This document shows positions 7,453-52,169 of a DNA stretch of 64,000 bases, in pieces. The position numbers were made by a program, and so were the translations under genes. Location: IMG/VR virus record IMGVR_UViG_3300042465_009257, positions 64,001-128,000 of that record. One strand, written 5' to 3'. The stretch's first letter is position 1; the number at the start of each line of letters is the position of its first letter. Under the pieces are notes generated by a model. That model saw only the letters and a program-made list of their open reading frames with translations, searched no databases and was not told where the DNA came from. This DNA is from a virus.

Positions 7453-7464
7453 CTAAAGGTATCT

Positions 7465-7620
7465 ATGAGATTAAAAATTGTTACCGAAAAATATCACTTC
7501 ACCTTTAGTAAGTCATTATCAGAATTGTTTAAGAGAATTGTTAAAGAGACTGACCTTTCTCAAATTCGCGTTATTGAGCGTGCCATCGAAGATTTCGCGG
7601 TTAAGAAGGGGGTAAAATAA
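7465..7620 (+). CDS. ribbon-helix-helix DNA-binding protein (51 aa), copy 1
   Basis: Not in the ORF track. MRLKIVTEKYHFTFSKSLSELFKRIVKETDLSQIRVIERAIEDFAVKKGVK: alternating beta strand then two amphipathic helices; 21/51 identical, ungapped, to 25571-25729. Confidence 0.8.
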   Translation: MRLKIVTEKYHFTFSKSLSELFKRIVKETDLSQIRVIERAIEDFAVKKGVK

Positions 7621-7621
7621 T

Positions 7622-9685: not shown

Positions 9686-10234
9686 TTAGTCGTCTGGATT
9701 GCATTCAGAGCATCCTGGGTCCCCACAATTACTTTCTCCACCTTGGTTTTCGTCCATAAGGAAGCTATCCATCAGTTGGAGGATTACAAAAGGTTCTTCC
9801 GGTAAAGGCATTCCAATCTGATTTTCACTCCAAGCCTCTTCGTCATCATCTTCCCATTCTTCCGGGTCAATGACATTAATTCCTGCTTCAAAACCTGTCT
9901 CTTTAACGAAGTTCTCTAAATCTTCCAAGGTCTCAGGCTGAATATAGAAGCGCCAGCCATTTTTATCCCAGTGCGTAAATGCGACCTCCTTCATTTCCAT
10001 ATCGCCGTCTTTCGTAAGCGAAACCATCTTCTGCATATCTTTTACTACCTCACGGGAGTTTTTCAGATCTTCTTTTGTCAAAATTTCAGAAGGTGCTGAG
10101 TGGCGATAAGTAGCTCTTTCTTTAAATGCTAATTCTTTTACATGGTCAAGCTGTTGCGAGGAATTAAAAATTTGGGATGTGATAAACCATTTTTTTGTTA
10201 CGGTTTTTTTAGGTTTCTGGATTTTTGCGGGCAT
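9686..10234 (-). CDS. hypothetical protein with acidic C-terminus ending in CGDPGCSEC
   Basis: 182-aa ORF preceded by a sigma70-type promoter. Confidence 0.65.
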   Translation of the reverse strand: MPAKIQKPKKTVTKKWFITSQIFNSSQQLDHVKELAFKERATYRHSAPSEILTKEDLKNSREVVKDMQKMVSLTKDGDMEMKEVAFTHWDKNGWRFYIQPETLEDLENFVKETGFEAGINVIDPEEWEDDDEEAWSENQIGMPLPEEPFVILQLMDSFLMDENQGGESNCGDPGCSECNPDD

Positions 10235-10253
10235 ATTAAAGTTTGACTAATTT

Positions 10254-10282
10254 AGTATATAGAGTTTTTAAGGATTGGTCAA
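10254..10282 (-). promoter_or_regulatory. sigma70-type promoter TTGACC-N17-TATACT
   Basis: Read directly. Confidence 0.78.
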
Positions 10283-10290
10283 TTTTAAGA

Positions 10291-11811
10291 TTATTTTGAA
10301 TATTTCGAGTAAGTTGCTTTATTGCGATCTGAAGAGCTTTGACGAGGAGTGAGTTGACCTGCTGATCCCAACGCCGCAACAACGTCCTTATAAGTTCCTG
10401 CCTCTGTAACTCGAAAATTAGAAAAATTTAGATTAATATGATTCTCTACCCAAACTGTTTGGTTTCCTTCTAATACTTCAAAAGGGCCAGACTCATCAGC
10501 GAATTCTCCAAGATTTCGTACAACAATCATACTCAGTTTGTGACTCCCAAATTTATTACTTTCTGTTCCAATCTCTTCTGGACTTTTACGGGTTAAGCTA
10601 AAAATTCCAGTGCTGTACCACTTTACCCGGTCAGCCTGTGCGATTTCTGAAGATCTATTTGTCTGGATGGCTGTAATGGAAATTGTTCTTGGCAGCTTTT
10701 CCGCTAATTGTTTCATAAGATCTGTTTTCATGCCGATTAGCTCATACTCTTTTAATGCTTGGCCTCCATTTCCAGCAGTTCGATCTTCATTTCCGGCAAA
10801 CTTTAGATAATCTAAAACGCATACAAAAATATCATCTGGTCCAACAAATTTAGAATGGAATCTTTTTGCTACACTTTCGATCTTATGAATATCCGCTGTT
10901 GGTAAATAATGATGGTAGATTGTTCCAGCCTTATCTCTAAACGATTGGAGCGAGTCTTGAGTTTTTTCTAAGCGATCTTTATCTTCCGCGAATTTGCCAT
11001 TGAGATAATAAAATGCATTTACTCCACTTTTCGCTGCCATTTTTCGGCAAGCTACCTCTCTTTTTGTCATTTCGGTATCAATAAAAAGAACCCGAATTTT
11101 CCCCTTCTCCCTCTTCGCTCCAAGTTCAACAAAATGATCTGTCAAAGCTGATAAAAAAGAACTCTTGCCTACCTTGGATGAAGCGGCAAAAACATACAGA
11201 CCTCCAATCATAAACTGCCCGTACCAACGATTAAAAATTGGGAAAGGCGACGGGAGTCCAAGCTCTCCTTTATTTCCTAATCCTTCGTTTAGCAAAGCCT
11301 CCATATCCCCATTGATATCGGTAAAGCTTTGGTCTTCTCCTAATACAGATTCAATTGTAACAGCATCAGTAACGATCTTCTCTGTCCCCGATAGAATATC
11401 TCGAAAATTAATCTCAGGATTTTCTAAACTTGTCTCAATAAATTTCTGCGCCTGAATAAGTTTCTTATATGTCTGCCGAGACCAATGGAATTTAGTTAAT
11501 TCGTCTAGGTATGCAATTTTGGCGTCTAAATTAATAGACATATGCGAAATTGAAGTAACGTAGTCGGCAACATCAAGGCCCTCTACGGAACTAAGTCCCA
11601 TCAAATTCAATCTAGAAATTAATAAATGCTCATCTAGTGTTTTTGTTTCAGCATAAAGAGTTTTAATTGCCGAAAATATCTTCTGATTAGGAGGAAAAGA
11701 GAAGAAGTCTGGCTTTAGATGTTCTCCAACTTCTCCAAGCCATCCAGGATCTTTGAAAAAACATGAAATCAAACAACGCTCAACTTCTCCGGTAATAATT
11801 CGTTTTGACAT
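10291..11811 (-). CDS. dnaB: replicative DnaB-like helicase
   Basis: DnaB N-terminal domain (ERCLI...F...NQKIF), Walker A ASSKVGKS, IDTEM, LDYL, IQTNR. Confidence 0.88.
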   Translation of the reverse strand: MSKRIITGEVERCLISCFFKDPGWLGEVGEHLKPDFFSFPPNQKIFSAIKTLYAETKTLDEHLLISRLNLMGLSSVEGLDVADYVTSISHMSINLDAKIAYLDELTKFHWSRQTYKKLIQAQKFIETSLENPEINFRDILSGTEKIVTDAVTIESVLGEDQSFTDINGDMEALLNEGLGNKGELGLPSPFPIFNRWYGQFMIGGLYVFAASSKVGKSSFLSALTDHFVELGAKREKGKIRVLFIDTEMTKREVACRKMAAKSGVNAFYYLNGKFAEDKDRLEKTQDSLQSFRDKAGTIYHHYLPTADIHKIESVAKRFHSKFVGPDDIFVCVLDYLKFAGNEDRTAGNGGQALKEYELIGMKTDLMKQLAEKLPRTISITAIQTNRSSEIAQADRVKWYSTGIFSLTRKSPEEIGTESNKFGSHKLSMIVVRNLGEFADESGPFEVLEGNQTVWVENHINLNFSNFRVTEAGTYKDVVAALGSAGQLTPRQSSSDRNKATYSKYSK

Positions 11812-14702: not shown

Positions 14703-14918
14703 TTAATTCCCAAATGGGCTAGTCGGCCTTTCTGCGGCATAACTCTTACATCCCTCACAAATTTTTGGGACGACTGGATTAATATTCTTTTTCCAACAAA
14801 AGTAGCCAGATGTCTGGCCCTTGAAACACCCGCCGCAACCGATTTGTGCAACGGAAACCACATTATGAGGCTCGTCGCTTCGGTAGCAGCAGGTGTCGAA
14901 TTTTTCTTGACCGGTCAA
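14703..14918 (-). CDS. small Cys-rich protein
   Basis: CC, CGGC, C and CEGC in 71 aa. Confidence 0.55.
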   Translation of the reverse strand: MTGQEKFDTCCYRSDEPHNVVSVAQIGCGGCFKGQTSGYFCWKKNINPVVPKICEGCKSYAAERPTSPFGN

Positions 14919-14969
14919 AACTTTTTAAGAAAAAGTGTAGTCAAAAATGGATAAATCAACAAAGCGGAT

Positions 14970-15149
14970 TTACTGAATAAAAGAACTGATCTTTTTCAGG
15001 ATAATCTCGCCGCTATTGACATCTCGAAATTTAACGGTTTGATCAGTAACTTTGAGGATCTTCGCGCAATAGCATTCTGTCTTATTCCCGTTACGGAAAG
15101 AGAGAGATGTGAAGCGCCCATTGTGGTTATTCAGTGTGTTTTTATTCAT
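14970..15149 (-). CDS. small hypothetical protein (59 aa)
   Basis: Manual translation MNKNTLNNHNGRFTSLSFRNGNKTECYCAKILKVTDQTVKFRDVNSGEIILKKISSFIQ fills the gap. Confidence 0.55.
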   Translation of the reverse strand: MNKNTLNNHNGRFTSLSFRNGNKTECYCAKILKVTDQTVKFRDVNSGEIILKKISSFIQ

Positions 15150-15171
15150 AAAAATTCCGGAAGCCCGGTAG

Positions 15172-15360
15172 CTATTGGGGGTCCATAGGGGACCTTAGCC
15201 CATTATTAAGAAATGGTACGATTACGGATTTAAATTCTGCATGAATAATCCTTTTCAGTGCCTTAAAATCTTCCTCGTCACGCCAAGCCATTTTGGAGTA
15301 ACTTACGGCACATTGCATTGCAAAATCCGAACCAAGCTCTTCTAATTCTTTTTCGTCCAT
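15172..15360 (-). CDS. hypothetical protein
   Basis: 62 aa; ATG 8 nt after TATAAT. Confidence 0.6.
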   Translation of the reverse strand: MDEKELEELGSDFAMQCAVSYSKMAWRDEEDFKALKRIIHAEFKSVIVPFLNNGLRSPMDPQ

Positions 15361-15368
15361 CTGTGTAT

Positions 15369-15397
15369 ATTATATAGGAAATTTAAAATTTGGTCAA
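15369..15397 (-). promoter_or_regulatory. sigma70-type promoter TTGACC-N17-TATAAT
   Basis: Read directly. Confidence 0.8.
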
Positions 15398-15401
15398 TCT
15401 A

Positions 15402-16268
15402 CTAAATTGAAGATTTGCATGTCATCGGCTCTAAACTTTTCTCATTTTGAATTTTTTGCCGATATTGCCCCCACCCGCAAAAGTTGCCTGACCATAAACG
15501 TCCCAGCTTGTCTTTATGGGTGAAAAAGATACTTGATTGGTCATAAAGTGGAGTTGCTTGATGTTCCATGGGTGAAAAATGAGCAGGTTCGCTATCGACC
15601 AATTTGTCGTAGATTCGGCAAGCCTTCTCTAAGCTTTCATCGGCTTTTCGGTATGATGTTTGAGCGCAAAGAGAAGCGGATAGTTTCAGTTTACTATCTA
15701 TGTCAAACTCTAGTCCATCATCTTCTACGTAAGGAAGATGCCATTCACCAGATTTTAATAGTTTAGGAGTACTTCCATCATGAGCCTTTTTCATATTAGC
15801 CGCCAATTGATGAATCGTAGGATCAGCATCTTTGTGATCTCGAAGCTTATACCAATTTTCAAAATTTGTCCCCGTCACTAAAACTTTGATAAAAGAAGAA
15901 GATTCAGTTAAACGATTAGCTATTTGCTTATGCGCTCCAATTTTTGAAAGGGCAAAAGAAAAAATACAATTGAATTTTGAGGATAAATCCCAAATCTTTT
16001 TTGCGGTAAATAGCCTCCAGCCTGTCAAATCTTCCTTTGCTGACATTCCTGCTTGGTTTTTTCCCCAGCTTACAGGTGCGGCAGGATTGTTCCATACAGC
16101 TTTAATCATCGTCAGAATTGGAATAGCTCTGGAACTCGCGGATGATTTTGATAGAATTTTATGTGTCAACAATTCTGAGTGAATGATCCGTGGATATTCT
16201 AGCTCAAATGTAATAATTTCTTGACCCCATTCAGTGATAGAATGTTTGATAATTTTGGCGGATGTCAT
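15402..16268 (-). CDS. thyX: FAD-dependent thymidylate synthase
   Basis: ELEYPRIIHSELLTHKILSKSSASSRAIP, HKQIANRL, LRDH.DA.P.I, HFSPMEHQA. Confidence 0.85.
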   Translation of the reverse strand: MTSAKIIKHSITEWGQEIITFELEYPRIIHSELLTHKILSKSSASSRAIPILTMIKAVWNNPAAPVSWGKNQAGMSAKEDLTGWRLFTAKKIWDLSSKFNCIFSFALSKIGAHKQIANRLTESSSFIKVLVTGTNFENWYKLRDHKDADPTIHQLAANMKKAHDGSTPKLLKSGEWHLPYVEDDGLEFDIDSKLKLSASLCAQTSYRKADESLEKACRIYDKLVDSEPAHFSPMEHQATPLYDQSSIFFTHKDKLGRLWSGNFCGWGQYRQKIQNEKSLEPMTCKSSI

Positions 16269-16652
16269 TTAGCTTGCTGCCTCCTCATTTAAATATTTGA
16301 AATCTTCAATTTTGTCTTGGCGAATTTGTGCCGCTGAATCAGAATATCCATCTGCATACCGCAACATTAGCTTTGCCTTATTCCCGTCAAGAATAGAAGA
16401 TCTTAAAAGACCTAGAATCTGTCGAATTCCTTCTGCGCCAAATTCAAGGTCTCCCATTTCTTCATGAATATTTTCAACATCTAGTTTTTTATTATAGACA
16501 ACGTGTTTTTTAACAGCGTCTAGAATTTCTGCCGCTTCACCCACTAGTAAAGTCGCCATGTGCCATAGGTCAACTTTTTCAGGAGTCAGCGTTTCTAGAA
16601 TTTGTTCGCCAGGTTTTTTCAGTGTTTTTACTAGTTCTTCGTGAGTCATCAT
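16269..16652 (-). CDS. MazG-like nucleotide pyrophosphohydrolase
   Basis: GEAAEILDAVKK...EEMGD...N.AKL..RY.DGYS. Confidence 0.85.
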   Translation of the reverse strand: MMTHEELVKTLKKPGEQILETLTPEKVDLWHMATLLVGEAAEILDAVKKHVVYNKKLDVENIHEEMGDLEFGAEGIRQILGLLRSSILDGNKAKLMLRYADGYSDSAAQIRQDKIEDFKYLNEEAAS

Positions 16653-16679
16653 AAATTTTAAAAAATTAATATATTGTGC

Positions 16680-16844
16680 TTATTCGCCAGTTTGTTTTTC
16701 TTTATTTGGAATCCTCTCGCATTTACATTGCCACGCCGTGAAAGAGCCATAGTAAAATCCTTGGTAAGTAACTGGTTTCATTTCAGCTTTACAATAAGGA
16801 CAGATCGGCATTTTTATACGATTTAACTTTATAGTAGATTTCAC
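16680..16844 (-). CDS. small zinc-ribbon-like protein (start uncertain)
   Basis: Manual translation ...MPICPYCKAEMKPVTYQGFYYGSFTAWQCKCERIPNKEKQTGE. Confidence 0.5.
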   Translation of the reverse strand: MKSTIKLNRIKMPICPYCKAEMKPVTYQGFYYGSFTAWQCKCERIPNKEKQTGE

Positions 16845-17071
16845 GAAATTCTTTTATATCCAGAAATGTTTTCAGGTATTTGATCGACCAAAGATTTACT
16901 TTGACCGCCCATTGCCCATTCATGCTTTATGAACACTCCATCTGTATTAACATAAAAATCAATTGCATTTGTAAACATCGCGCCCAACCCCTGCCGAAAC
17001 TCGGCTATTAACTTTGCCGAACAAAGTGATAATGTTGCCGTTTTTACATTTGTTTCTATAGCATGTTCCAT
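16841..17071 (-). CDS. hypothetical protein
   Basis: 76-aa ORF in operon. Confidence 0.55.
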   Translation of the reverse strand: MEHAIETNVKTATLSLCSAKLIAEFRQGLGAMFTNAIDFYVNTDGVFIKHEWAMGGQSKSLVDQIPENISGYKRIS

Positions 17072-17075
17072 ATTA

Positions 17076-17318
17076 TTATTTACTTAAGGTGTTGGCAACA
17101 AGCCATTCTTTAAATTTCGCTTTATCCTCCGCAGAATCGTCCCAATCATCTCTAAGAGATTTAATAGGCTCAATACTAGTAACTCTAGTGGAATAGTTTT
17201 CTGTCTTAGCCTTACGGACAACAACTAATGAACGGTAGTCTTCGCGGCTTTGAATTTCAGATGGGCAAAGTTTCCGTTTTGGCTTTTCCAGTGGTTTCGT
17301 TAGTTCTTTATGAGTCAT
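17076..17318 (-). CDS. hypothetical protein
   Basis: 80-aa ORF in operon. Confidence 0.55.
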   Translation of the reverse strand: MTHKELTKPLEKPKRKLCPSEIQSREDYRSLVVVRKAKTENYSTRVTSIEPIKSLRDDWDDSAEDKAKFKEWLVANTLSK

Positions 17319-17358
17319 ATTACACTACTACTACAGATTCAGAATAAGTCAACAAATT

Positions 17359-17817
17359 TCAGAAAAAATTTAAATTCAATGGCCAGTAGTCAACGATTTC
17401 TTGCAAGCGGTCAAGAGGAAAATCATTGGTCATAATAGTTTGCGCTGGAATATTAACAGATGGTTGAATAGTTATAATTCCATTGTCATTAACATTAATT
17501 AAATTTTCATACATGTAATCCCATACTGTTTGGAGCACCATGAAATCATCTTCATTTTCAATTTGATCCCAATCGTCTTGGCACTCCCATGTTTCAAAAT
17601 CTTGTAAATTATCAAGATTGTCAAAATATGCAACTAAACTACATTCTTGGCCAATGCTATATTTATCAAGCCATCTATATGCGGCCCATATTTTATAGCT
17701 AGAATCGGGTTCTGTTTTTTCTTCAATCCGAACTGTTACAACAGCTTCTACTTTTTTAGATTTCGGAGACTGCTTATAAAACAAATAATGAATATTATCA
17801 GATGTAGAATTTTCCAT
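17359..17817 (-). CDS. hypothetical acidic protein
   Basis: 152-aa ORF. Confidence 0.6.
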   Translation of the reverse strand: MENSTSDNIHYLFYKQSPKSKKVEAVVTVRIEEKTEPDSSYKIWAAYRWLDKYSIGQECSLVAYFDNLDNLQDFETWECQDDWDQIENEDDFMVLQTVWDYMYENLINVNDNGIITIQPSVNIPAQTIMTNDFPLDRLQEIVDYWPLNLNFF

Positions 17818-17826
17818 ATCACGCCT

Positions 17827-17973
17827 TTAATTGTATTTAGAGTCTACTTTTTTCCTAACTTCTTCCAACTTTTTAATCTCCTCAATTTCTGCTTGAATCT
17901 TTATTTTTTCCTTTTCAATATCAGTAATTATAGGAAAGATATATTTTGCCAATGATTTTAATTTTTTCTTCAT
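17827..17973 (-). CDS. small coiled-coil protein (48 aa)
   Basis: MKKKLKSLAKYIFPIITDIEKEKIKIQAEIEEIKKLEEVRKKVDSKYN; ATGA overlap with the upstream gene. Confidence 0.5.
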   Translation of the reverse strand: MKKKLKSLAKYIFPIITDIEKEKIKIQAEIEEIKKLEEVRKKVDSKYN

Positions 17974-18212
17974 CCTTCACCAGGCACCGAGACTTCCCAT
18001 CCTAGTCGGGAAATAATTTTATCCATTGACTCTTTAGTCCGAAAAGTATTAACTTGGCAAGTTTCATTACGACCTTCAAATGTCGAGGCGCTAATCTGTT
18101 TAATTTCTGAATCAGGAATTACCAACATAGAATCATCTATGAGGCGTAGCAGCATGGCGCGGATTTTTACAGCAGGCTTTTTTTTACTTAGGGCTTTATT
18201 TTTTACAATCAT
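17970..18212 (-). CDS. hypothetical protein (start revised to ATG 18212)
   Basis: The longer track ORF overlaps the tRNA. Confidence 0.55.
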   Translation of the reverse strand: MIVKNKALSKKKPAVKIRAMLLRLIDDSMLVIPDSEIKQISASTFEGRNETCQVNTFRTKESMDKIISRLGWEVSVPGEG

Positions 18213-18224
18213 AATATTAAATTT

Positions 18225-18314
18225 TGGTGGGAGATGAGGGAATTGCACCCATCGCCGCCTTCCACTTTGTTATAATGGCAACGGATTTACAGTCCGCCAA
18301 GTGGGGCATCGCCC
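18225..18314 (-). tRNA. tRNA-Tyr(GUA), atypical: no D arm, long variable arm, encoded CCA
   Basis: GGGCGAT/ATCTCCC-A-CCA acceptor (one mismatch), GCGGA-CTGTAAA-TCCGT anticodon arm, GA(T)GGG-TGCAATT-CCCTC T arm. Confidence 0.8.
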
Positions 18315-18321
18315 GTATTCA

Positions 18322-18350
18322 AGTATACGGCGGGAATTTTGAAAAGTCAA
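18322..18350 (-). promoter_or_regulatory. sigma70-type promoter TTGACT-N17-TATACT for the tRNA
   Basis: -10 element ends 7 nt before tRNA G1. Confidence 0.8.
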
Positions 18351-18375
18351 GAGAAATTATTATGCCAACATCAGT

Positions 18376-18422
18376 TTAAATGGTTCCTAAACCGTCATCT
18401 GTACGGAAAAGGAACCATTTAA
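18376..18422 (-). terminator. long hairpin after nrdA (terminator or processing site)
   Basis: TTAAATGGTTCCT/AGGAACCATTTAA 13-bp stem, 3x3 internal loop, CCGT/ACGG inner stem; no clear U-tract. Confidence 0.55.
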
Positions 18423-18432
18423 GCTTTGGATT

Positions 18433-20079
18433 CTACGCTTCGCAAGACGAACAATTAAGAATCGATCTGGCCAATTGCTGACTAGGATTACTAGAGCGTT
18501 GGTAATAGACTCCTTTTAGTCCTTTTCGCCACGCTTCAATCAAAAGAAGGCTCATGTCCTTTACAGGAGTCTCAGGAGGAATCATGAAATTGATACTTTG
18601 TCCTTGGTCAATATCTTTCTGCCGCGCCGAAGCCTGATTAATAATTTCCATCTGGCTAATTTCACCAAAAGTTTTGAATACATCTTTTTCATCTTGAGTC
18701 AAAAAGGTGAGATGCTGAACTGATCCCCCATGATTCAAGATAGATTTCCAAACTTCTGTAGAGTTTTCCCCTTTTTCTTTTAAGAGTTTTTTAACATACG
18801 GATTTTTAAAGGTGAACTTCCCTTTAGCTAAATCCTTAATGAAATAATTGGAGTTTAGTGGCTCAATCGACGGAGATACTTGGCCAAGAATAAACGAACT
18901 TGATGTTGTCGGGGCAACGGCACGAGTTGTACTATTCCTAATCCCATACCCCTTTAGAAGCTCAGGCTCTCCGAATAAAACCGCTAATTCTTGTGTAGCT
19001 TTATTGCACTTATTTGCAATATTTTTCCAAACTTGGGAGTTCAAAAGCTTTGCTTCCATGGACTCAAAGCTAATCATTTTTGACTGTAACAGAGAATGCC
19101 ATCCTAAAACTCCTAATCCAAGCGCTCGTTGGTTCATCGCAAAGCGCCGTGGAGCTTCCATGAATGCCATGCCTTCTGTTTTATTGATGAACTCTGTCAT
19201 CACTGCATCTAAAAAGTAAATTAGCGTCTCTACAGCGTCAGTATCTTTCCATTCATCATAATGAAGTAGATTCATTGAAGAAAGGTTGCAAACAAAAGAC
19301 TCTTTATCCGAATTAGCTAAATAAATTTCATTACACAGATTGGAATGGTTAATCTTTAGTCCTTTGTCTTTATAAACTTGCGGAGAGTTTTTATTTACTG
19401 TGTCAGAAAAGAAAAGATAAGGATATCCCGAACTCGACCGTTTCTCCAAAATCTTTTTCCAAACAGTCATATTCTCTTTTTTCTTCTCCAAGAGATCATT
19501 CATCCACTGATCGGAAATACAAACTCCTAAAGACATTTCTTGGATTGGATGCCCAGTATCGCGAATACGCAAAAACTCTAAAATATCAGGATGATCTACT
19601 GGAAGGTATGCCGCGAAAGATCCTCTGCGAACATTTCCTTGACTTACAACATTCATTAGCTTGTCGAAAATTTCCATAAAATGGACAGAACCAGTTGATT
19701 CACCACCAGACGAAATTTTGCTACCTCTGCCGCGAAGATCACCGAAAAAAGCAGAAGTTCCACCTCCAGCTTTTGTCATCATTCCTACTTCTGCCGCTTT
19801 GCCAAGAATATCTTCCATGCTATCCCCAATGTAACTTCCGAAACAGGAGATAGGCAAGCCACGAGACTTAGAGAAATTAGACCAAATTGGAGAGCTTAAG
19901 CTATACCAGCCGCGAGATAGGTAATCTTCAAATTTTTCGGCAAATCCATCAATTCCAAGATTTTTTTCTGCCTCTTTCGCGATTTCCCAAATTCGATCTT
20001 CGGCAGATTGTCCTTCTTCAAGATACCCCCTGGATAAATATTTGCGTGATTCCTCATTAAGCCAATAATATTTACTCAT
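18433..20079 (-). CDS. nrdA: ribonucleotide reductase alpha subunit (short, no ATP cone)
   Basis: PISCF, SNLCNEI, VCNLSS, APTTSSS, DQGQS, VYY, C-terminal CSSC. Confidence 0.95.
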   Translation of the reverse strand: MSKYYWLNEESRKYLSRGYLEEGQSAEDRIWEIAKEAEKNLGIDGFAEKFEDYLSRGWYSLSSPIWSNFSKSRGLPISCFGSYIGDSMEDILGKAAEVGMMTKAGGGTSAFFGDLRGRGSKISSGGESTGSVHFMEIFDKLMNVVSQGNVRRGSFAAYLPVDHPDILEFLRIRDTGHPIQEMSLGVCISDQWMNDLLEKKKENMTVWKKILEKRSSSGYPYLFFSDTVNKNSPQVYKDKGLKINHSNLCNEIYLANSDKESFVCNLSSMNLLHYDEWKDTDAVETLIYFLDAVMTEFINKTEGMAFMEAPRRFAMNQRALGLGVLGWHSLLQSKMISFESMEAKLLNSQVWKNIANKCNKATQELAVLFGEPELLKGYGIRNSTTRAVAPTTSSSFILGQVSPSIEPLNSNYFIKDLAKGKFTFKNPYVKKLLKEKGENSTEVWKSILNHGGSVQHLTFLTQDEKDVFKTFGEISQMEIINQASARQKDIDQGQSINFMIPPETPVKDMSLLLIEAWRKGLKGVYYQRSSNPSQQLARSILNCSSCEA

Positions 20080-20082
20080 AAA

Positions 20083-21069
20083 TTAAAATAGATCGTCGGT
20101 ATCAAAGCTCTGAGACTTCTTGCTATATTCTACAGGTCGGCGGGCAAAAAAGTCAGTAGATGTATTTCCTAAAACTTCTTCGTCAAACCAAAGAGTTTGC
20201 TTAATTAAAAATTCATCGATTTCAAAAGCTTTGCGGTAGCCAATCTCAATTAAAGAATCATTAATTCTATTCTTAACGAACTCTTTCAAGACTTCTGGAT
20301 TCAATCCATCTTCGGTTACTCCTTCTAAAGCCCAATCAATAATATTTGATTCAGCTTTAAATGCTTCTTTCGCCTCATGAATAATTTTTTCTTCTAAGTC
20401 TTGATCAAAAAGTTCTGGGTATTCATCTCGGATTACATTAATAATCTTGATTCCTACCATTGAATGAATTCTCTCCTCTTTCGCGGTATAAGCAGTCTGC
20501 TGAGTGACCGACTTTAAAACATTCTTGTGCCGATTTAGCCAATTGACAATATAGAATTGACTGAAAAGAGAAACATTTTCAACGAACAAAGTGAACAAAG
20601 TCACGGCGTAGAGATATTGCTTTTTCTTATCAGAGTATTCTTTTTTCCGATATTTACGAAGATAGTCTACACGACCCTTAAAAAAGGGCAACTTTAGATT
20701 CTTCTCAAAGACATCTTCGATCCCTAGTTCTTCCAAAAGTCTCCCATAAGCTTGGGAATGGGTTACCTCAATGGCTGCGAGTTTAAAACCAAGGTCAATT
20801 AAACTAGGATGCGGAAGATTTTCTCCTAATTTGCCCCAATAAACTTTTACTTCTGTTTCCACTTGGGAGATAGCAGAAAGAGTTCTAATGACACACTCTT
20901 TGATTTGTGGTGATAGAGCTACATTAAAATCTTGGATATCGCTAGCAAAAGAAAATTCTTTGTCTGTCCAGTGCCCTGAGTCCATTGCGTCAATGAATTC
21001 ATAAGCCCATGGATATCGGTCTGGCTTGCGACTAATTTGTTCATCAAAGATTCTAATTTTATCACTCAT
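20083..21069 (-). CDS. nrdB: ribonucleotide reductase beta subunit (class Id-like)
   Basis: QVETEVK, EVTHSQAY, ENVSLFSQF, EERIH, DFFARRPVEY. Confidence 0.93.
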   Translation of the reverse strand: MSDKIRIFDEQISRKPDRYPWAYEFIDAMDSGHWTDKEFSFASDIQDFNVALSPQIKECVIRTLSAISQVETEVKVYWGKLGENLPHPSLIDLGFKLAAIEVTHSQAYGRLLEELGIEDVFEKNLKLPFFKGRVDYLRKYRKKEYSDKKKQYLYAVTLFTLFVENVSLFSQFYIVNWLNRHKNVLKSVTQQTAYTAKEERIHSMVGIKIINVIRDEYPELFDQDLEEKIIHEAKEAFKAESNIIDWALEGVTEDGLNPEVLKEFVKNRINDSLIEIGYRKAFEIDEFLIKQTLWFDEEVLGNTSTDFFARRPVEYSKKSQSFDTDDLF

Positions 21070-21078
21070 ATTTAAAAT

Positions 21079-21486
21079 TTATAGTCCACTGCTAATTTCC
21101 ATCGCCTCTACCTCTGCCGCAATTTTTGCCTGCTCTGTTGTTGCGTTTATTGAGGCTTGTTTTGTTGCCTCTTTCGCTGCCGTATTCGTTACATCCGCCG
21201 CAGTCTTGGAGTTCTTCACGGATTGATAAGTGGCGTTCCCAGTGCTCCAGATATCAGTTGCTGCCCACGCCCCAATACCCCATTTAACAACCCCGCCCAA
21301 ATCAGAAAAGGATTTCTCATTATTGGCTCCCGCCATAACTACTGTATCTCCTTTCTTCACAAAAATCATATCCTTGCCGCCGACTCGGCTTCCAGATTTG
21401 ATAGAAATTCCATCTACAACTACTGAATTCGATGTGCTACATGCTACAAGAAAACACGGAAATGCTAAAAGGATTAGATTTTTCAT
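21079..21486 (-). CDS. putative lipoprotein
   Basis: MKNLILLAFPCFLVAC-S signal peptide with lipobox-like LVAC. Confidence 0.6.
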   Translation of the reverse strand: MKNLILLAFPCFLVACSTSNSVVVDGISIKSGSRVGGKDMIFVKKGDTVVMAGANNEKSFSDLGGVVKWGIGAWAATDIWSTGNATYQSVKNSKTAADVTNTAAKEATKQASINATTEQAKIAAEVEAMEISSGL

Positions 21487-21497
21487 TTAAATTTTAT

Positions 21498-21827
21498 TTA
21501 GCTAAGTTTTCCAAGGACCTCTAAAAAATCCTTAATAACAGGATCTTTGATCATCTTCTCATAGCTACGATAATTGGCTTTCTTCTTTTTGTCAAGAGCC
21601 GCTTTGGCTTTTTTCCATGCTGCATATAACTTTGCAGGATCAGTTTCTAAATCGCCAATAGGAAATTCCAGCAACAACCGCTCTGTTTCTAAGCCGCCGA
21701 CATTCTCTACATAAAATGAAAAAGTTGACTCCGTTACTGACGCCCCGCTATAAAAATTGCCTTCTAGCTTAGCAATAAATTCGCCAGCAATCTCATCAAT
21801 TTTTTCAAAAACTTCTTCTAATTCCAT
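21498..21827 (-). CDS. hypothetical protein
   Basis: 109-aa ORF in operon. Confidence 0.6.
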   Translation of the reverse strand: MELEEVFEKIDEIAGEFIAKLEGNFYSGASVTESTFSFYVENVGGLETERLLLEFPIGDLETDPAKLYAAWKKAKAALDKKKKANYRSYEKMIKDPVIKDFLEVLGKLS

Positions 21828-21842
21828 ATTAATTTTTAAAAT

Positions 21843-22223
21843 TTATTCAATTATAATGTCTCGACTTGGCTTTGCTTGTTTACCACGCTTTGCTTTTCCA
21901 CCTCTAGCATCACTATATTTTTTATCAGCTTCTGCTTTAAGAAGATCAACTCCACCCATTTTCTCGGCCCTAGCTTCGCTAAGATCAGAAGCGCGATCCC
22001 AGATATCACCCAAGGTTCCACCTTTTGAGGTTTTGTCAAGGAATTGTTTTGGGTTAAACGGGTCAGATTTAACGTCCATGCTAATCTGAGGTACGGTCCA
22101 GACCCGATCCCATTTTACTCCCGCAAGAATATATTCGTGAACATCGTTTACGGATAGAAAAAGAGAAATAATATCTCTGGGATCTTGTGGATTAGAAAAT
22201 TGATATTCTGGCATGGCTGGCAA
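21843..22223 (-). CDS. FmdB-like protein lacking Cys ligands
   Basis: MPEYQF... start and W.RV..VP motif; likely start ATG 22214. Confidence 0.45.
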   Translation of the reverse strand: MPAMPEYQFSNPQDPRDIISLFLSVNDVHEYILAGVKWDRVWTVPQISMDVKSDPFNPKQFLDKTSKGGTLGDIWDRASDLSEARAEKMGGVDLLKAEADKKYSDARGGKAKRGKQAKPSRDIIIE

Positions 22224-22229
22224 ATGATA

Positions 22230-22256
22230 TTACAGTAGTTCCTAAAAGGCTGGAAA
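22230..22256 (-). promoter_or_regulatory. class II promoter TTTCC-N17-TGTAA
   Basis: Read directly. Confidence 0.7.
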
Positions 22257-22264
22257 TATTTTCT

Positions 22265-22858
22265 TTAAGAAATTGAAAATTCAGAGCGGATTGTTAAATT
22301 AAATTCTGGAATTGAGATAGATGTGGCGATGCCTAGCTCTAAAGCTTTTTCGCTGGTAATCAACCAGTCATCCAATAAATTATTCTTTAATTGCTTTTTA
22401 ATCCAATCCTTGGGTTTCTTAAGATGCTTACTAAGAACTTCATTCATTAAATCATTTTCCTTACCGTGCCACTCAACGACTTGTCGAGCCTCTTGTAGAT
22501 TTCCCTCAAAGCCTAGTTGAGTACTGTGAAATAAGAGTGAAGAGAATTTCCCCATGTACCGGTGATCACAATACATGAAAACACAGCATCCTGCTGAAGC
22601 TGCTGTTCCAGATACTACGGCAGCAAATTGCATTCCCTTCTCACGATAACAATCCATGATTGACATAAAGCCAAACAAAATTGCTGCACTGCCTCCATCG
22701 CTTTGAATAAAGATGGGCATCAAAGGCTGAGAATTCTCATGAGCGCGATGCAGCGTCTTTGAGAATGCCTGCAAAGACCTTTCTGAAAAATCGGTAAGAT
22801 GAAAAACACCCGGCACTGCGACATCTCTGACTTGAGGCGATTGACTAATATTCCACAT
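22265..22858 (-). CDS. clpP: ClpP-like serine protease
   Basis: IQSDGGS, AASAG (Ser), LLFHS (His), DWLITSEKALELGIA (Asp). Confidence 0.85.
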   Translation of the reverse strand: MWNISQSPQVRDVAVPGVFHLTDFSERSLQAFSKTLHRAHENSQPLMPIFIQSDGGSAAILFGFMSIMDCYREKGMQFAAVVSGTAASAGCCVFMYCDHRYMGKFSSLLFHSTQLGFEGNLQEARQVVEWHGKENDLMNEVLSKHLKKPKDWIKKQLKNNLLDDWLITSEKALELGIATSISIPEFNLTIRSEFSIS

Positions 22859-24021: not shown

Positions 24022-24424
24022 TCTCTGTTTCTTCGATTTGAATGGTTTTGTCAAACTTTTTGATAAGAGCAAAAGATGAATCTAATCCAAATAAAGTTTC
24101 TGCCCAAGTTGAAATCCAGCCTTCAGTATTTTCAAGGGTTTCCCAAGAAGGGAGGTATAAAACTTCAGGAGGTCCATGCGGCTCAAAAACTTCAAAGCAT
24201 TGAATAATCCAATCCATTCCTGGTTTTAGAGAAGTGAAAATCCGCGCATCTTCTTCCATCGCTAAACTTTCTAAGTTGAATACTGAAACAGTCACAGTAA
24301 ATTTCTCATGCTGATCCTCAATCAATTGCGTCATCACCTGATATCGTATTCCACCATCAATAGATACCAAAAATGGTTCCCGATGGGAGAAACAGGCTGC
24401 ACGGACTAGGTTGGATTGAGACAT
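24008..24424 (-). CDS. hypothetical protein (start revised to MSQSNL)
   Basis: Revised start avoids a long overlap with the upstream gene. Confidence 0.55.
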   Translation of the reverse strand: MSQSNLVRAACFSHREPFLVSIDGGIRYQVMTQLIEDQHEKFTVTVSVFNLESLAMEEDARIFTSLKPGMDWIIQCFEVFEPHGPPEVLYLPSWETLENTEGWISTWAETLFGLDSSFALIKKFDKTIQIEETEIDQS

Positions 24425-24702
24425 TTGTTTTTTACGATAAACGCGATTATTGGACTTGTCAATGGAATATATAATGGAAAACCTGCGATAAGGCAAATCC
24501 CGAGAGATAGCCAAAGATTATGGCACAATTGGCATTTCCACAAGTTGAAAATTAAATCTGCACAAATTTTTTCAGCGGCGCGACGACTTTGCATCCAAAT
24601 CAGAAGCCTAGTTCTGAAATCTTCAAAAAGTGTAGACTCATGGGTTACAAAATTTAAATAAGACAGTAAAATGCCTACGCAAATAATTAGTTCTAAATTC
24701 AT
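24406..24702 (-). CDS. small membrane protein (DUF1360-like)
   Basis: Hydrophobic segments and L..CQLCHNLW motif. Confidence 0.55.
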   Translation of the reverse strand: MNLELIICVGILLSYLNFVTHESTLFEDFRTRLLIWMQSRRAAEKICADLIFNLWKCQLCHNLWLSLGICLIAGFPLYIPLTSPIIAFIVKNKCLNPT

Positions 24703-25388
24703 ACATCTTGTAAACCTTCTTTTAGCTCCGAGTCAACCCATTTTTCCATTTTTCTCACCATCTCGCCGCCTTCTTTCCACAAACCAGAATTTTCCTTCAT
24801 TACACGTTCCACCTCTAAACGTGGAATCGACTCTCCATTCTCAAATTTGCTAAAATCATGCCAGCGGAATTGAACATCAGCAGCTTTGCGGATTAGTGGG
24901 TCATTTTTCTCTTCCTCGCTGTTCGCTGGCTCTAGAACATGGAATTGCCCATACCAGTCCTTGCTGTCATATCTTTCAACGTGGACGATTTTCCCACCAT
25001 TAGATTTTACAAATCCAAGCTCGTCGCCGCCGCCAAATTCCGCAAAACGCAAATCCGTAATAAATCTTACTTGCGGTCCTTCTGGGGAAAGGAGAGTATC
25101 TCGGATTTTATTCAACCAATACTGCCCCTTACTATCATTTCTGCGGAGCTTGCCATATTGAACAAGCAATGGCCGAACCCTTGTCTTCTCTTCAGTAACC
25201 TCGGTAAACGCCGAAAATCCAAACTTATCAGTTATAAAATGGTCCAGGTCTCTCTTCAATTCGTCGGCGAAAGCCCATCGCCCGCAGGTGATTCCTTCTT
25301 CTTTGAGAAAATCAGAGGCGAATCTGTAAAAAGAGTCCTTGCCCGATCGCCCGACCCCCGAAAGGGCTATAATTTTAAATGATTTCAT
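24699..25388 (-). CDS. deoxynucleoside monophosphate kinase (T4 gp1-like)
   Basis: P-loop SGVGRSGKDS, AFADELK, R.LLVQYG, ITDLRF..E; start ATG 25388. Confidence 0.85.
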   Translation of the reverse strand: MKSFKIIALSGVGRSGKDSFYRFASDFLKEEGITCGRWAFADELKRDLDHFITDKFGFSAFTEVTEEKTRVRPLLVQYGKLRRNDSKGQYWLNKIRDTLLSPEGPQVRFITDLRFAEFGGGDELGFVKSNGGKIVHVERYDSKDWYGQFHVLEPANSEEEKNDPLIRKAADVQFRWHDFSKFENGESIPRLEVERVMKENSGLWKEGGEMVRKMEKWVDSELKEGLQDV

Positions 25389-25394
25389 TCCTTT

Positions 25395-25424
25395 ATTATA
25401 GGTGGAAACGAAAGAAAAAGTCAA
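25395..25424 (-). promoter_or_regulatory. sigma70-type promoter TTGACT-N18-TATAAT
   Basis: 6 nt before the kinase ATG. Confidence 0.75.
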
Positions 25425-25529
25425 CCGACTGTCTCAAAATGATTATTTTCGCGAAAAAAAATGGTTGAGGCTTTCGGATTTGACCAAAAAACGGGCAGGA
25501 AAAGAATCATTAATAATTTAAAATAAATT

Positions 25530-25556
25530 GTTCCCTTTTCTTTACCATTCCTGTAA
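25530..25556 (+). promoter_or_regulatory. class II promoter GTTCC-N17-TGTAA with TTAC-N7-GTAA palindrome (25542-25556)
   Basis: 14 nt before ATG 25571. Confidence 0.62.
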
Positions 25557-25570
25557 TTAAACATATAATT

Positions 25571-25729
25571 ATGAATCACCGAATTAAAACTAAACGCTAT
25601 AATTTTTGCTTTGACCCGAAAATTGACGAACTCTTGAAAAAAATTAAAGCAGAAACTTCAATAGGATTAACGAAAATTGTGGAGTTAGCTGTTGTTGATT
25701 TTGCCGAAAAGAAAGGAGTTTCTTTATGA
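25571..25729 (+). CDS. ribbon-helix-helix DNA-binding protein (52 aa), copy 2
   Basis: Not in the ORF track. MNHRIKTKRYNFCFDPKIDELLKKIKAETSIGLTKIVELAVVDFAEKKGVSL; ATGA overlap with the nuclease ORF. Confidence 0.8.
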   Translation: MNHRIKTKRYNFCFDPKIDELLKKIKAETSIGLTKIVELAVVDFAEKKGVSL

Positions 25730-26523
25730 TCGGTGTCGTTTTTAACATGAATATCGAATCTCTTGCGATTTGCCCAAGAACCAACGGAATTTACAAAATC
25801 ACAAATACGAAAACAGGAAGATTCTATATTGGCCGAGCAGAATACAAGAAAGGTTTTTTTCGCCGGTGGTATCACCATAGGTGGCAACTTAGAAAAAATA
25901 TCCATGAAAATCCTCATTTGCAAAACTCTTATAACAAATATGGAGAGTCTTGTTTCACCTTCGAGATTCTTGAAATTAAAGACTATGGAGATCCGTTAAT
26001 AGATCTAGAGTCAGAATATATCATAAATTTAAAAGCCATGTACTTTGAAGACGGGTATAATCTTACGAATGAAAGGTTTGCCGCAAAATATCCTAAAATA
26101 TACAGAGAAAATCATCATAACTCAAAAGAATTTGAACTGCTTGACCCAGAAGGAAATTTAATTAAAGGCAGGAATTTAAGTCAATTCTGTGAAGAACTAG
26201 ATGTGGGCGTAGGAGCCATGTGGGATGTCATCCACGGAGATAGAAAATCCTACAAAGGATTCAAATCTCCCAATCCCGAATTTCACGTAGTTAAAAAAGA
26301 GTATCGCTTGCTCTCGCCCGAAAAAGAATTGTTCGTATTTGACAACGCCGCAGAATTCGCGAGAAAGATAGGGGTAAACAAACGTTCTATACACAAAGTA
26401 TTAAAAGGGGAAAGGTCTAATGCCGAGGGCTACCATCTTGAAAATCCATTACCAGAACATCAAAGAAATCTTGATAATTATTTCAATAGGAAGCATCTCT
26501 CTGATCGAATCAACTTTCAATGA
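25726..26523 (+). CDS. GIY-YIG homing endonuclease (I-TevI/Seg-like)
   Basis: GIYKITN...FYIGRA...RRW..H...L....H.N..LQ..YNKYG...F.FEILE...E..I...GYN; two C-terminal HTH-like repeats. Confidence 0.88.
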   Translation: MIGVVFNMNIESLAICPRTNGIYKITNTKTGRFYIGRAEYKKGFFRRWYHHRWQLRKNIHENPHLQNSYNKYGESCFTFEILEIKDYGDPLIDLESEYIINLKAMYFEDGYNLTNERFAAKYPKIYRENHHNSKEFELLDPEGNLIKGRNLSQFCEELDVGVGAMWDVIHGDRKSYKGFKSPNPEFHVVKKEYRLLSPEKELFVFDNAAEFARKIGVNKRSIHKVLKGERSNAEGYHLENPLPEHQRNLDNYFNRKHLSDRINFQ

Positions 26524-26674
26524 ATCCGTCCAAATCCTTTTTTAGCTCATCAGCAAAAGCCCAGCGGCCACATGAAATTCCCTCCGTTTCTAGAAATTCC
26601 GAAGCGAAGCGGTAAAAAGAGTCCTTCCCCGCCCGACCGACGCCAGAGATTCCGATAATTTTAAATGGTTGCAT
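26510..26674 (-). pseudogene. truncated 5' copy (54 aa) of the dNMP kinase
   Basis: MQPFKIIGISGVGRAGKDSFYRFASEFLETEGISCGRWAFADELKKDLDGFIES*; 41/52 aa identical to the start of the full kinase. Confidence 0.85.
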
Positions 26675-26680
26675 TGATGA

Positions 26681-26710
26681 ATTGTATCGGGCTTTTGTGC
26701 GGAAAGTCAA
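26681..26710 (-). promoter_or_regulatory. sigma70-type promoter TTGACT-N18-TACAAT of the kinase remnant
   Basis: 6 nt before ATG 26674; same geometry as 25395-25424. Confidence 0.75.
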
Positions 26711-26731
26711 TCTTAGAATTTTTAAAATTAA

Positions 26732-26758
26732 ATTCCTTTTCTGCATATTCGCCTGTAA
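26732..26758 (+). promoter_or_regulatory. class II promoter ATTCC-N17-TGTAA
   Basis: Upstream of the PolA-like gene; followed by TTGACT-N17-TTTAAT (26765-26793). Confidence 0.55.
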
Positions 26759-26800
26759 AAGAACTTGACTTATTTGATTTCCGACTTTTTAATTACTGTG

Positions 26801-28345
26801 ATGCCTAAAATGAATTACTCTCTGGTAAACCCCGATAAAACGATTCTCAAAAATGAAAACATGATTCGAACAATAGGGTATGGGGGAGAGGGGACCATTG
26901 CTGGAGGGAGGGAGAGGGTGTCTCTTTATAAGGGGAGGTTTAGAGAAGTACAAGAAGTAATAGAGGGGAGGTCTATACTTAGTAATGATGTAGATTGGGA
27001 ATTTAAAGAGAAATCTTTCTTAATCCCTTCAGACTTTTCTAATAATGAGCTTCTTAGCCTTGGCTTGAAAGAGAAACATATTGCGAATGCTATGGTTTTT
27101 CTTTCCTTATTAAGGATTTCAACAAAGTACAAAGAGGTTGTTCTGAGGGATGTTAATCCATTCAGTAGAATTAACAGTATAGTTCTTTCGGAATTTATGT
27201 TAACTCTTGGCTCCGGTACGAAAGACATGTTGAAAAAATTAAGCATTGCACAATGGATTGAGATTGACCATTCTTACCAAGCAGGAATCAAATCAAAAGG
27301 ATATCGTCTTGGGAAAAGATTTGAAAACTCAAAATGGATTTCCGCAAATTGGAAAGAAAGTCTTGAAAAATTTGTCCCAGGTGTCCTGCAAGGAGGTTAT
27401 ATTTCTAGGAGCAGAGATGTTTTGTATGGACTCTGGGATAGAGCTTGTATATATTTTACCAACTGGCAGGCTATGGCTGACGGCCCTTTAAAGGAAATCT
27501 GCAAAAGAACGTCAGAAATAGGCCGTAAATTGATCGTAAGATACTGTGAGGCTCTGACTAAGGAAATTAATACAAACGCTGTAGAGCATATCAAATGCCC
27601 AGCAAATCAAGCATCTGTAGAAAATGGATGGACACTAGAGAAACAAATTCAAAATTATTGGGATTCTTTGTCGTATTTTGACGGTAAAAGTTTTTCTGTT
27701 ACCTGTCACGACGAAAGGTTTAAGTTTTTTACTTACCGTTTGTATTCAAATGTTGTAAATTTAAAATCTGAGTTTCGCCAATTTCTAGAACTAGATGGAC
27801 AGCAAATGGTGAACGTGGATATCCAATCCTGCCAAGTGGCTTTACTGGCGACATTCTATAACACTGAAGATTTAGTGGAAAAAGAGAAATTCATCAAAAT
27901 TATTTGCGAAAAAGATATTTATCTATTTATCGCGGGAGATAAAATTGAGCGGAAACAAGCGAAATCTGACTTTTTCTATATCATGTTCGACAAGAATTGT
28001 AACCAAAAAGGAGAAACTTGCCGCCGATTTAAAGAGGAATTTCCAATCTTAACTCAAAGGATTTACGACGAAAAGAAAAGAAATGGTTATAAAAGTGTAG
28101 CTCGTCTAATGCAGACAAAAGAAGCTTCTATTATGATATTAGGAGCATTGAATAAACTCCTTTTCGTAAATGAAATTGAAGCTTTTTCAATCCACGACTC
28201 TATCTTTTGTCTTCTTAAAGACGTAAAATTAGTAGAAGAAACTATCCGCTCCTTCTTTACAAATCAAATGGGCTTCTGCCCAGCAATTAAAGTGGAAGCG
28301 CCCAGAGTGGATGAATCTGCCAACCGTATTGGGCAGCAATCATAA
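26801..28345 (+). CDS. minimal family-A polymerase-like protein with putative winged-helix N-terminal region
   Basis: YRLYS...FRQFLELDG..MVNVDIQSCQ (motif A), RKQAK...IMF (motif B), IHDSI (motif C); no exonuclease motifs; start ATG 26801 inferred from promoter spacing. Confidence 0.68.
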   Translation: MPKMNYSLVNPDKTILKNENMIRTIGYGGEGTIAGGRERVSLYKGRFREVQEVIEGRSILSNDVDWEFKEKSFLIPSDFSNNELLSLGLKEKHIANAMVFLSLLRISTKYKEVVLRDVNPFSRINSIVLSEFMLTLGSGTKDMLKKLSIAQWIEIDHSYQAGIKSKGYRLGKRFENSKWISANWKESLEKFVPGVLQGGYISRSRDVLYGLWDRACIYFTNWQAMADGPLKEICKRTSEIGRKLIVRYCEALTKEINTNAVEHIKCPANQASVENGWTLEKQIQNYWDSLSYFDGKSFSVTCHDERFKFFTYRLYSNVVNLKSEFRQFLELDGQQMVNVDIQSCQVALLATFYNTEDLVEKEKFIKIICEKDIYLFIAGDKIERKQAKSDFFYIMFDKNCNQKGETCRRFKEEFPILTQRIYDEKKRNGYKSVARLMQTKEASIMILGALNKLLFVNEIEAFSIHDSIFCLLKDVKLVEETIRSFFTNQMGFCPAIKVEAPRVDESANRIGQQS

Positions 28346-52168: not shown

Positions 52169-52169
52169 A

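Follow-up and report, generated by a model that had tools for sequence, protein, structure and literature searches.

Endonuclease open reading frames (ORFs) that sit inside protein genes without an intron have been described in fungal mitochondria as mORF gene hybrids, namely in atp6 of Allomyces macrogynus and in atp6, atp9, cox2 and nad3 of Glomus (PMC3630166), and C-terminal duplications of atp6 and cob have been found beside GIY-YIG and LAGLIDADG ORFs (PMC6279837). In T4-like phages, the free-standing GIY-YIG nucleases of the Seg type show intronless homing, co-conversion and marker exclusion, and nuclease insertions have left genes in pieces, as in nrdA-mobE of Aeh1, gene 39/60-mobA of T4 and gene 43 of phage 25; the T4 review that treats these cases mentions no duplication with nuclease insertions inside phage genes (PMC2988022). 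Here we analyse a locus with likenesses to each of these systems, contained in a stretch of 64,000 bases (the window) that covers bases 64001–128000 of the IMG/VR phage record IMGVR_UViG_3300042465_009257, of 173,358 bases in total. A GIY-YIG homing endonuclease gene and a small ribbon-helix-helix (RHH) gene, both inverted, lie there between a complete deoxynucleoside monophosphate (dNMP) kinase-like gene and a second, diverged copy of the 5′ end of that kinase, which we call the remnant.

We favour, with a probability of about 0.72, the explanation that an intron-free homing endonuclease cassette is lodged in the kinase ORF at about codon 57–59; the cassette is real and probably mobile. In the orientation of the kinase, the mobile unit would consist of the inverted GIY-YIG and RHH genes, a region with divergent promoters, and a foreign copy of the kinase promoter together with the first ~57–70 codons. 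This foreign 5′ end would have been joined in frame to the resident 3′ part, so keeping the kinase whole, and the resident promoter and 5′ end would have been pushed aside as a dead-end remnant. The features of the locus are listed below; we term "occupied" the two genomes that carry the cassette, the window and L015 (an 11-kb NCBI contig), and "empty" the cassette-free loci of relatives such as L003 and L103.

24699–25388, minus strand: working dNMP-kinase-like gene, chimeric; an ORF of 229 amino acids (aa) with an intact P-loop
25059–25178, minus strand: transition patch, kinase nt 211–330, in which the occupied genomes are 17% different
25179–25388, minus strand: carried (foreign) 5′ tract, kinase nt 1–210, recognised from its divergence profile and its long branch in the 5′ tree
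25395–25424, minus strand: sigma70-like promoter TTGACT-18-TATAAT of the working kinase, ending 6 nt before the ATG
25531–25557, plus strand: TTCC-N17-TGTAAT motif before the RHH gene, a candidate phage-type promoter of the cassette
25571–25729, plus strand: RHH gene, 52 aa; Pfam RHH_3 at 3e-4; ATGA overlap with the nuclease start
25726–26523, plus strand: GIY-YIG homing endonuclease gene, 265 aa, with Pfam and PHROG matches
26510–26674, minus strand: kinase 5′ remnant, the displaced native end; 54 codons and then TGA, beginning MQPFKIIGISGVGRAGKDSFYRFAS
26675–26764, no strand assigned: native divergent intergenic spacer, 90 bp, of the same length as in empty sites
26681–26710, minus strand: native kinase promoter TTGACT-18-TACAAT, with a near-identical promoter in the empty sites of L003 and L103
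26765–28345, plus strand: 526-aa gene, native upstream neighbour of the kinase; an ORF also present in cassette-free relatives

Nearly all genes of the window lie on the minus strand, and its few plus-strand islands contain nuclease genes. Along the minus strand the kinase locus reads TACAAT promoter, remnant, inverted nuclease and RHH genes, TATAAT promoter and complete kinase, and every one of these parts, as claimed in an earlier reading made from the letters of the window only (the sequence-only reading), is present at its place. That reading had proposed an insertion without splicing, with which our results agree: no intron model of Rfam matched positions 24400–27000 at E ≤ 1. A group I or group II intron was rejected on this ground, and an intein was rejected as well, the nuclease being on the strand opposite to the kinase with no in-frame intein. 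The insertion had been placed near codon 53; it does lie inside the 5′ region of the kinase, but the duplicated stretch runs to about codons 57–59. The kinase-homologous part of the remnant spans 26516–26674, the last codons of the remnant overlap the stop codon of the nuclease gene, and the whole is a redundant duplicate of the first 53–57 codons of the kinase.

The parallel with the endonucleases of fungal mitochondrial atp genes, already drawn in the sequence-only reading, is apt (PMC3630166). In both systems an endonuclease ORF sits inside a protein gene without an intron, a foreign and diverged copy of a gene end keeps the gene whole, and the original end survives as a displaced remnant matching the sequences of relatives; identity between the duplicates is 63.5% in Glomus atp6 and 69% in the phage kinase. 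However, the fungal hybrids replace the 3′ end of their host gene, whereas the kinase cassette replaces the 5′ end, so that promoter and start codon travel with it. The ORF of the fungal type lies downstream of, or in phase with, the host gene, while the phage nuclease gene is antisense, has its own start and is not fused in frame. Unlike the fungal elements, the cassette also has an RHH partner and a promoter-like motif of its own, and its host is a phage. With the Seg type it shares a free-standing GIY-YIG nuclease with a NUMOD-type DNA-binding domain, presence/absence polymorphism at one locus, flanking sequence linked to the nuclease gene, and nuclease genes at exchange boundaries (PMC2988022; see also PMC10448857); Seg genes are nevertheless intergenic, whereas this nuclease gene lies inside an ORF, compensated by a duplicated and diverged gene start. 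As in the genes in pieces, a nuclease gene stands within a conserved enzyme gene without splicing, but the products of those genes are two polypeptides that come together again, whereas the kinase here is complete and the leftover piece redundant. Full-text literature searches, of incomplete coverage, found no phage precedent of a nuclease-linked partial gene duplication. As far as we found, the carrying of gene ends is already known from fungal mitochondria, and its application to gene starts or in phages is apparently new.

The working kinase has its full length and can be aligned with uninterrupted homologues from one end to the other. It matches the dNMP kinase family phrog_139 (4e-14) and, weakly, Pfam DNMK; a protein search returned 36 homologues (15 close relatives), and PF21448 is found in many relatives. 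A profile of the kinase family had no match among PDB sequences. In the nuclease, the DNA-binding module matches PF22083 (I-HmuI_NUMOD-like, 7.6e-8, above the cut-off) and the catalytic part PF01541 (GIY-YIG) at 2e-3, below the cut-off; the protein also matches two PHROG homing-endonuclease families (1.4e-19 and 8e-18), and its alignment shows the GIY...YIG, Arg, Glu and Asn motifs in conserved form. Between the window and L015, the nuclease gene shows a synonymous divergence (dS) of 0.35 and a nonsynonymous divergence (dN) of 0.036, with a dN/dS of 0.10, and the dN/dS of the RHH gene is 0.06; because of these ratios, both genes are kept by selection.

Presence of the cassette is polymorphic at one site, occupied in the window and L015 and empty in L003, L004, L005, L103 and L006. 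In the first three of the empty loci, a spacer of 90 bp separates the 526-aa gene from the uninterrupted kinase downstream (in L003, the 526-aa gene ends at 2790 and the kinase starts at 2881), and in the window the distance from the 526-aa gene to the remnant is 90 bp, exactly as in these loci. In L003, L103 and L006, DNA homology with the window covers the 526-aa gene, the spacer and the 5′ end of the kinase, stops at window positions 26519–26520 and restarts at the ATG of the working kinase. As had been predicted for relatives without the cassette, it is the remnant that matches their 5′ ends (82–83% nucleotide identity with L003, L103 and L006) and not the working 5′ end (71–77%). Among 136 more distant kinase loci, none had a second kinase N-terminus near the gene.

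The remnant and the working N-terminus are identical at 41 of 52 aa, the figure originally given and now confirmed by BLASTP (E 3e-29), and their DNA is identical at 110 of 159 nt (69%). Homology between the repeats begins at the −35 box and stops in the window after codon 53; judged from the better-kept copy in L015, the duplicated stretch extends to about kinase nt 170–177 (codons 57–59). Small deletions lie beside the junction in the window's remnant, which still has the consensus protein sequence. The claim that most synonymous positions differ stands to the extent that 25 of the 41 same-residue codons do so, but not beyond chance: random codon draws give 23.0 ± 2.8 differences, that is, saturation, and recoding in excess of it was rejected despite a Nei-Gojobori proportion of synonymous differences (pS) of 0.91. 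Native alleles differ from each other at 9–18 such codons, versus ~25 expected. The working 5′ end, in turn, shows synonymous differences at the random-draw level to every sampled allele, while its protein is 75–87% identical to theirs. Because synonymous sites are saturated while the protein stays this similar, the carried 5′ tract appears to derive from a kinase lineage that is distant and unsampled but subject to the same constraint on its protein. The origin of the two copies in separate lineages rather than by a recent duplication, as the sequence-only reading had it, is borne out by this saturation and by the outlying position of the working 5′ tract.

The chimerism of the working gene is evident in comparison with L103, the closest empty allele. 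The first 159 nt of the working gene are 29% different from L103 and its 3′ part 16% (Fisher p=0.0003), whereas the remnant is 17% different, indistinguishable from the 3′ part of the working gene (p=0.71). The ratio of 5′ to 3′ divergence, which lies between 0.05 and 0.97 in 15 cassette-free allele pairs, is 1.8 for the working gene, and a max-chi-square analysis places the break at about nt 252, with a statistic reached by 0 of 1000 permutations. Nucleotides 1–210 differ by 29% from L103 and by 2% between the two occupied genomes, and nucleotides 331–687 by 12% and 3%, respectively; the intervening nt 211–330, 17% different between the occupied genomes, look like two different ends of a conversion tract. 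A breakpoint does therefore exist in the full gene, as had been anticipated, but at about nt 210–330 (codons 70–110), downstream of the predicted codons 50–55. In a tree of the 3′ part, the working gene is sister to L103 and L003 with a support of 91, while in the 5′ tree its 5′ part forms a long separate branch and the window's remnant falls among the cassette-free alleles.

The second occupied site, L015, encodes the closest relative of the nuclease (P0037, 93%) and is collinear with the window over 9.8 kb, with the order kinase, RHH, nuclease, remnant and 526-aa gene. Kinase homology of its remnant reaches to about nt 170–177, where the 3′ end of the nuclease gene follows; the junction sequence is the same as in the window, and GATTC at the junction is a possible microhomology. 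Nucleotide identity between the window and L015 is 96–98% in the downstream genes, 94% in the 3′ part of the working kinase, 97.5% in its 5′ tract, 94% in the RHH gene and 91% in the nuclease gene, and it is 72% in the remnant, 54% in the spacer and 67% in the 526-aa gene. The fall from ~91% to 72% occurs exactly at the junction, with differences beginning within ~10–15 nt of it; therefore, the cassette and the carried 5′ tract are linked to each other and to the kinase side, and the remnant goes with the variable neighbour side. The right flank of L015 is a mosaic in which the 526-aa gene is L003-like and the spacer and remnant are L006-like, and a division of the window and L015 into two clean backbone types (L003-like and L006-like) was consequently rejected. 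In L015 the remnant has replacements at invariant or near-invariant residues of the family (R15W, D19E, W39C and D48H), as expected of a relic, and is decaying. Its codons 14–43 have been converted to the working-copy sequence and, because of this match, the two repeats must interact.

Several observations weigh against a mobile, gene-end-carrying cassette. Only two occupied genomes are known, close relatives with 90–98% identity in the kinase-side sequence, and the region as a whole is a hot spot of recombination in which relationships are mosaic; the cassette may have entered just once, in an ancestor, the right flank having since been exchanged by ordinary recombination. The nuclease lacks a C-terminal module of ~57 aa that most of its relatives, those of 321 aa, possess. 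A relative of 263 aa, encoded at a terminase locus, stops at the same boundary as the 265-aa nuclease, and for this reason we consider these C-terminal ~57 residues to be a separable module. Furthermore, the donor lineage of the carried tract is unsampled, synonymous sites being saturated in comparison with every known allele, and the 5′ tree is built on 159 nt and weakly resolved. The breakpoint lies 15–50 codons downstream of the edge of the duplication and not at the edge, a position to be expected from a short co-conversion tract extending beyond the insertion point.

The first of these points can be extended into a rival explanation, which we consider unlikely: the structure would be the relic of a single illegitimate repair or recombination event in the ancestor of the window and L015, inherited vertically ever since, with a nuclease that targets another site or none and flanks that differ by mosaic recombination. 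Such a relic would agree with the one junction common to two genomes so similar on the kinase side, with the mosaic composition of the flank (an L003-like 526-aa gene next to an L006-like spacer and remnant in L015) and with the lack of a further occupied site among the 136 more distant loci, but an exchange boundary within ~10–15 nt of the junction would be rare for a random crossover in a 170-nt repeat. Against a relic also stand the strong purifying selection on the nuclease and RHH genes, the end of the conversion tract differing between the two occupied genomes, and a second cassette in the same genome that follows the same logic (see below).

Considerably less probable is a local tandem duplication of promoter and 5′ end, later split by a free-standing nuclease unit, with the copies diverging in place. 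Although direct repeats do flank the cassette and gene conversion between the copies does occur in L015, where remnant codons 14–43 are near-identical to the working copy, the copies are synonymously saturated (25 of 41 codons versus 23.0 at random) when native alleles differ at 9–18; moreover, the remnant is as near to L103 as the 3′ part of the gene is, leaving the working 5′ tract as the sole outlier, and the foreign tract reaches beyond the duplicated segment. Least credible of all is an assembly artefact joining two strain variants of the kinase region, since, for all that the contig is metagenome-derived and several kinase alleles are found together in similar samples, L015, an independent assembly that is 3–46% different along the region, has this architecture and junction too, and the ORFs are intact and under selection.

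For the favoured explanation, an insertion by a homing cassette, we infer a cut site, an immunity of the working allele, a repair route and an origin as follows. The nuclease would cut cassette-free kinase alleles near nt 170–210, next to the conserved motif KFGFSAFTE. Of the two broken ends, the left one, made up of the kinase 5′ end of the recipient, would pair with the donor's remnant and the right one with the 3′ part of the kinase; repair would then copy the cassette, the foreign 5′ tract and a variable stretch downstream, and the 5′ end of the recipient would become the new remnant. The identity step at the junction and the variable tract end at kinase nt 211–330 are compatible with a unidirectional transfer that co-converts the flanks, as far as two occupied genomes allow. 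The working allele would presumably escape cutting through sequence divergence across the site, and the ~31% DNA divergence between the repeats would make loss of the cassette by recombination between them harder. For the composite a single origin is most likely, from a free-standing unit of RHH and nuclease genes that lay upstream of a distant kinase allele, perhaps by one-sided homologous plus illegitimate (microhomology) repair as seen experimentally in T4 (PMC2988022); the divergence of the neighbour gene (54–67%), too great for a homology arm, may have favoured this one-sided route. The T4 process is similar in that one homologous and one microhomology junction could create such a composite. 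It differs in being a laboratory observation with introns, for which the review describes no natural product that retains a duplicated gene start.

Outside the window, the same genome has a cassette of a helix-turn-helix (HTH) gene (57 aa) and a LAGLIDADG gene (312 aa) that converges on a 267-aa gene (G000:C1, about 51220–53331; L019, 1721–3832). The displaced 3′ remnant (...CGAVHEECYKLEGTELAEYMNKKREEILNKLKA) encodes a peptide nearly equal to the C-terminal sequences of homologues without the cassette, and it is the C-terminus of the working 267-aa gene that is foreign and an outlier with respect to them; an empty site exists in L160, and the foreign tract starts near codon 141. The LAGLIDADG case is a 3′-end counterpart of the kinase case and a closer analogue of the fungal mORF hybrids. 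A tblastx search for duplicated gene ends flanking the 13 nuclease cassettes of the genome found the kinase case only, and the LAGLIDADG case was detected only by blastp at the ORF level; carried gene ends are thus detectable in 2 of the 13 cassettes.

More tentatively, and with less confidence than we place in the kinase cassette itself, both cases might belong to an undescribed class of phage cassettes that enter conserved ORFs with neither intron nor intein, carrying a diverged gene start, with its promoter, or a diverged gene end; the remnant would be more than debris and would serve as the next homing arm, its promoter would fire antisense into the nuclease gene, and the divergence would provide both immunity and stability. 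The kinase cassette, as we read it, constitutes a third way, besides introns or inteins and split genes, for a selfish nuclease to reside inside a phage gene without harm, and extends the gene-hybrid principle of fungal mitochondria to viruses and to gene starts, where the promoter must move too. It also explains the origin of short foreign tracts and orphan gene fragments in phage genomes, which on this reading are homing footprints and not annotation noise. The two natural occupied and three natural empty alleles form a cheaply testable system for a new GIY-YIG specificity, and the same alleles are suited to asking whether recoded repeats give immunity and stability.

No other sigma70-type sites in the region match as well as the TTGACT-18-TATAAT and TTGACT-18-TACAAT promoters. 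Every kinase allele has a −35 TTGACT/A and a −10 element ending 6–7 nt before the ATG, so the promoter that the cassette was said to supply is indeed present, but it is of the same conserved type as in all other alleles and not a novel element. The native promoter would now drive the remnant and also transcribe the cassette in antisense direction. In L003, L103, L006, L104, L106 and the window (25389–25424 and 26675–26710), the 6–7 nt between the −10 element and the kinase ATG leave no space for a ribosome-binding site, which suggests that the kinase message is leaderless and that this feature is conserved. The TTCC-N17-TGTAAT motif found before the RHH gene also stands directly before the 526-aa gene (26733–26759), and its wider form TTCC-N16-18-TGTAAW has 11 matches in the window versus 1.4 expected, often just before gene starts, making it a candidate phage-specific promoter class. 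Since the motif precedes both the RHH and the 526-aa genes, the spacer of the cassette carries a divergent promoter pair like that of the native spacer, which fits an ancestral free-standing RHH-nuclease unit between the kinase and its neighbour.

The 526-aa gene matched no family. It is highly variable among otherwise similar phages (67% nucleotide identity, dS ~2 and dN 0.26 with respect to L015) and shows mosaic relationships, constituting a local diversity hot spot. A blastn comparison of the region with the phage GenBank collection gave no match, and scans of IMG/VR with single kinase, nuclease or 267-aa protein queries returned nothing close; an alignment-based scan of IMG/VR retrieved distant kinases only (30–48%). 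A gene similar to IS605 OrfB/TnpB (Cas12f-like) is found a few genes downstream of the kinase in L003 (4297–5292) and L017 (9945–11174), and the window phage has no such gene at that place.

The closest paralogue of the nuclease and its relatives (genome positions 153724–154701, which is L008; L021, 5001–5792) lie between ERCC4-like and large terminase genes. Some nucleases of these terminase loci are long (321 aa) and others short (263 aa); therefore, the C-terminal DNA-binding module has been gained or lost between loci. Related small RHH-like ORFs were found by blastp upstream of plus-strand nuclease genes of different families, at 7453–8620 and 25571–26523 of the window and at 5747–6881, 9906–11121, from 39688 and 59534–60914 of the genome; they resemble a regulator or partner module that the cassettes have in common. 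Lastly, positions 14800–22500 of the genome, before the window, hold a dense array of short repeated mini-ORFs with hundreds of self-matches in ORF blastp comparisons.

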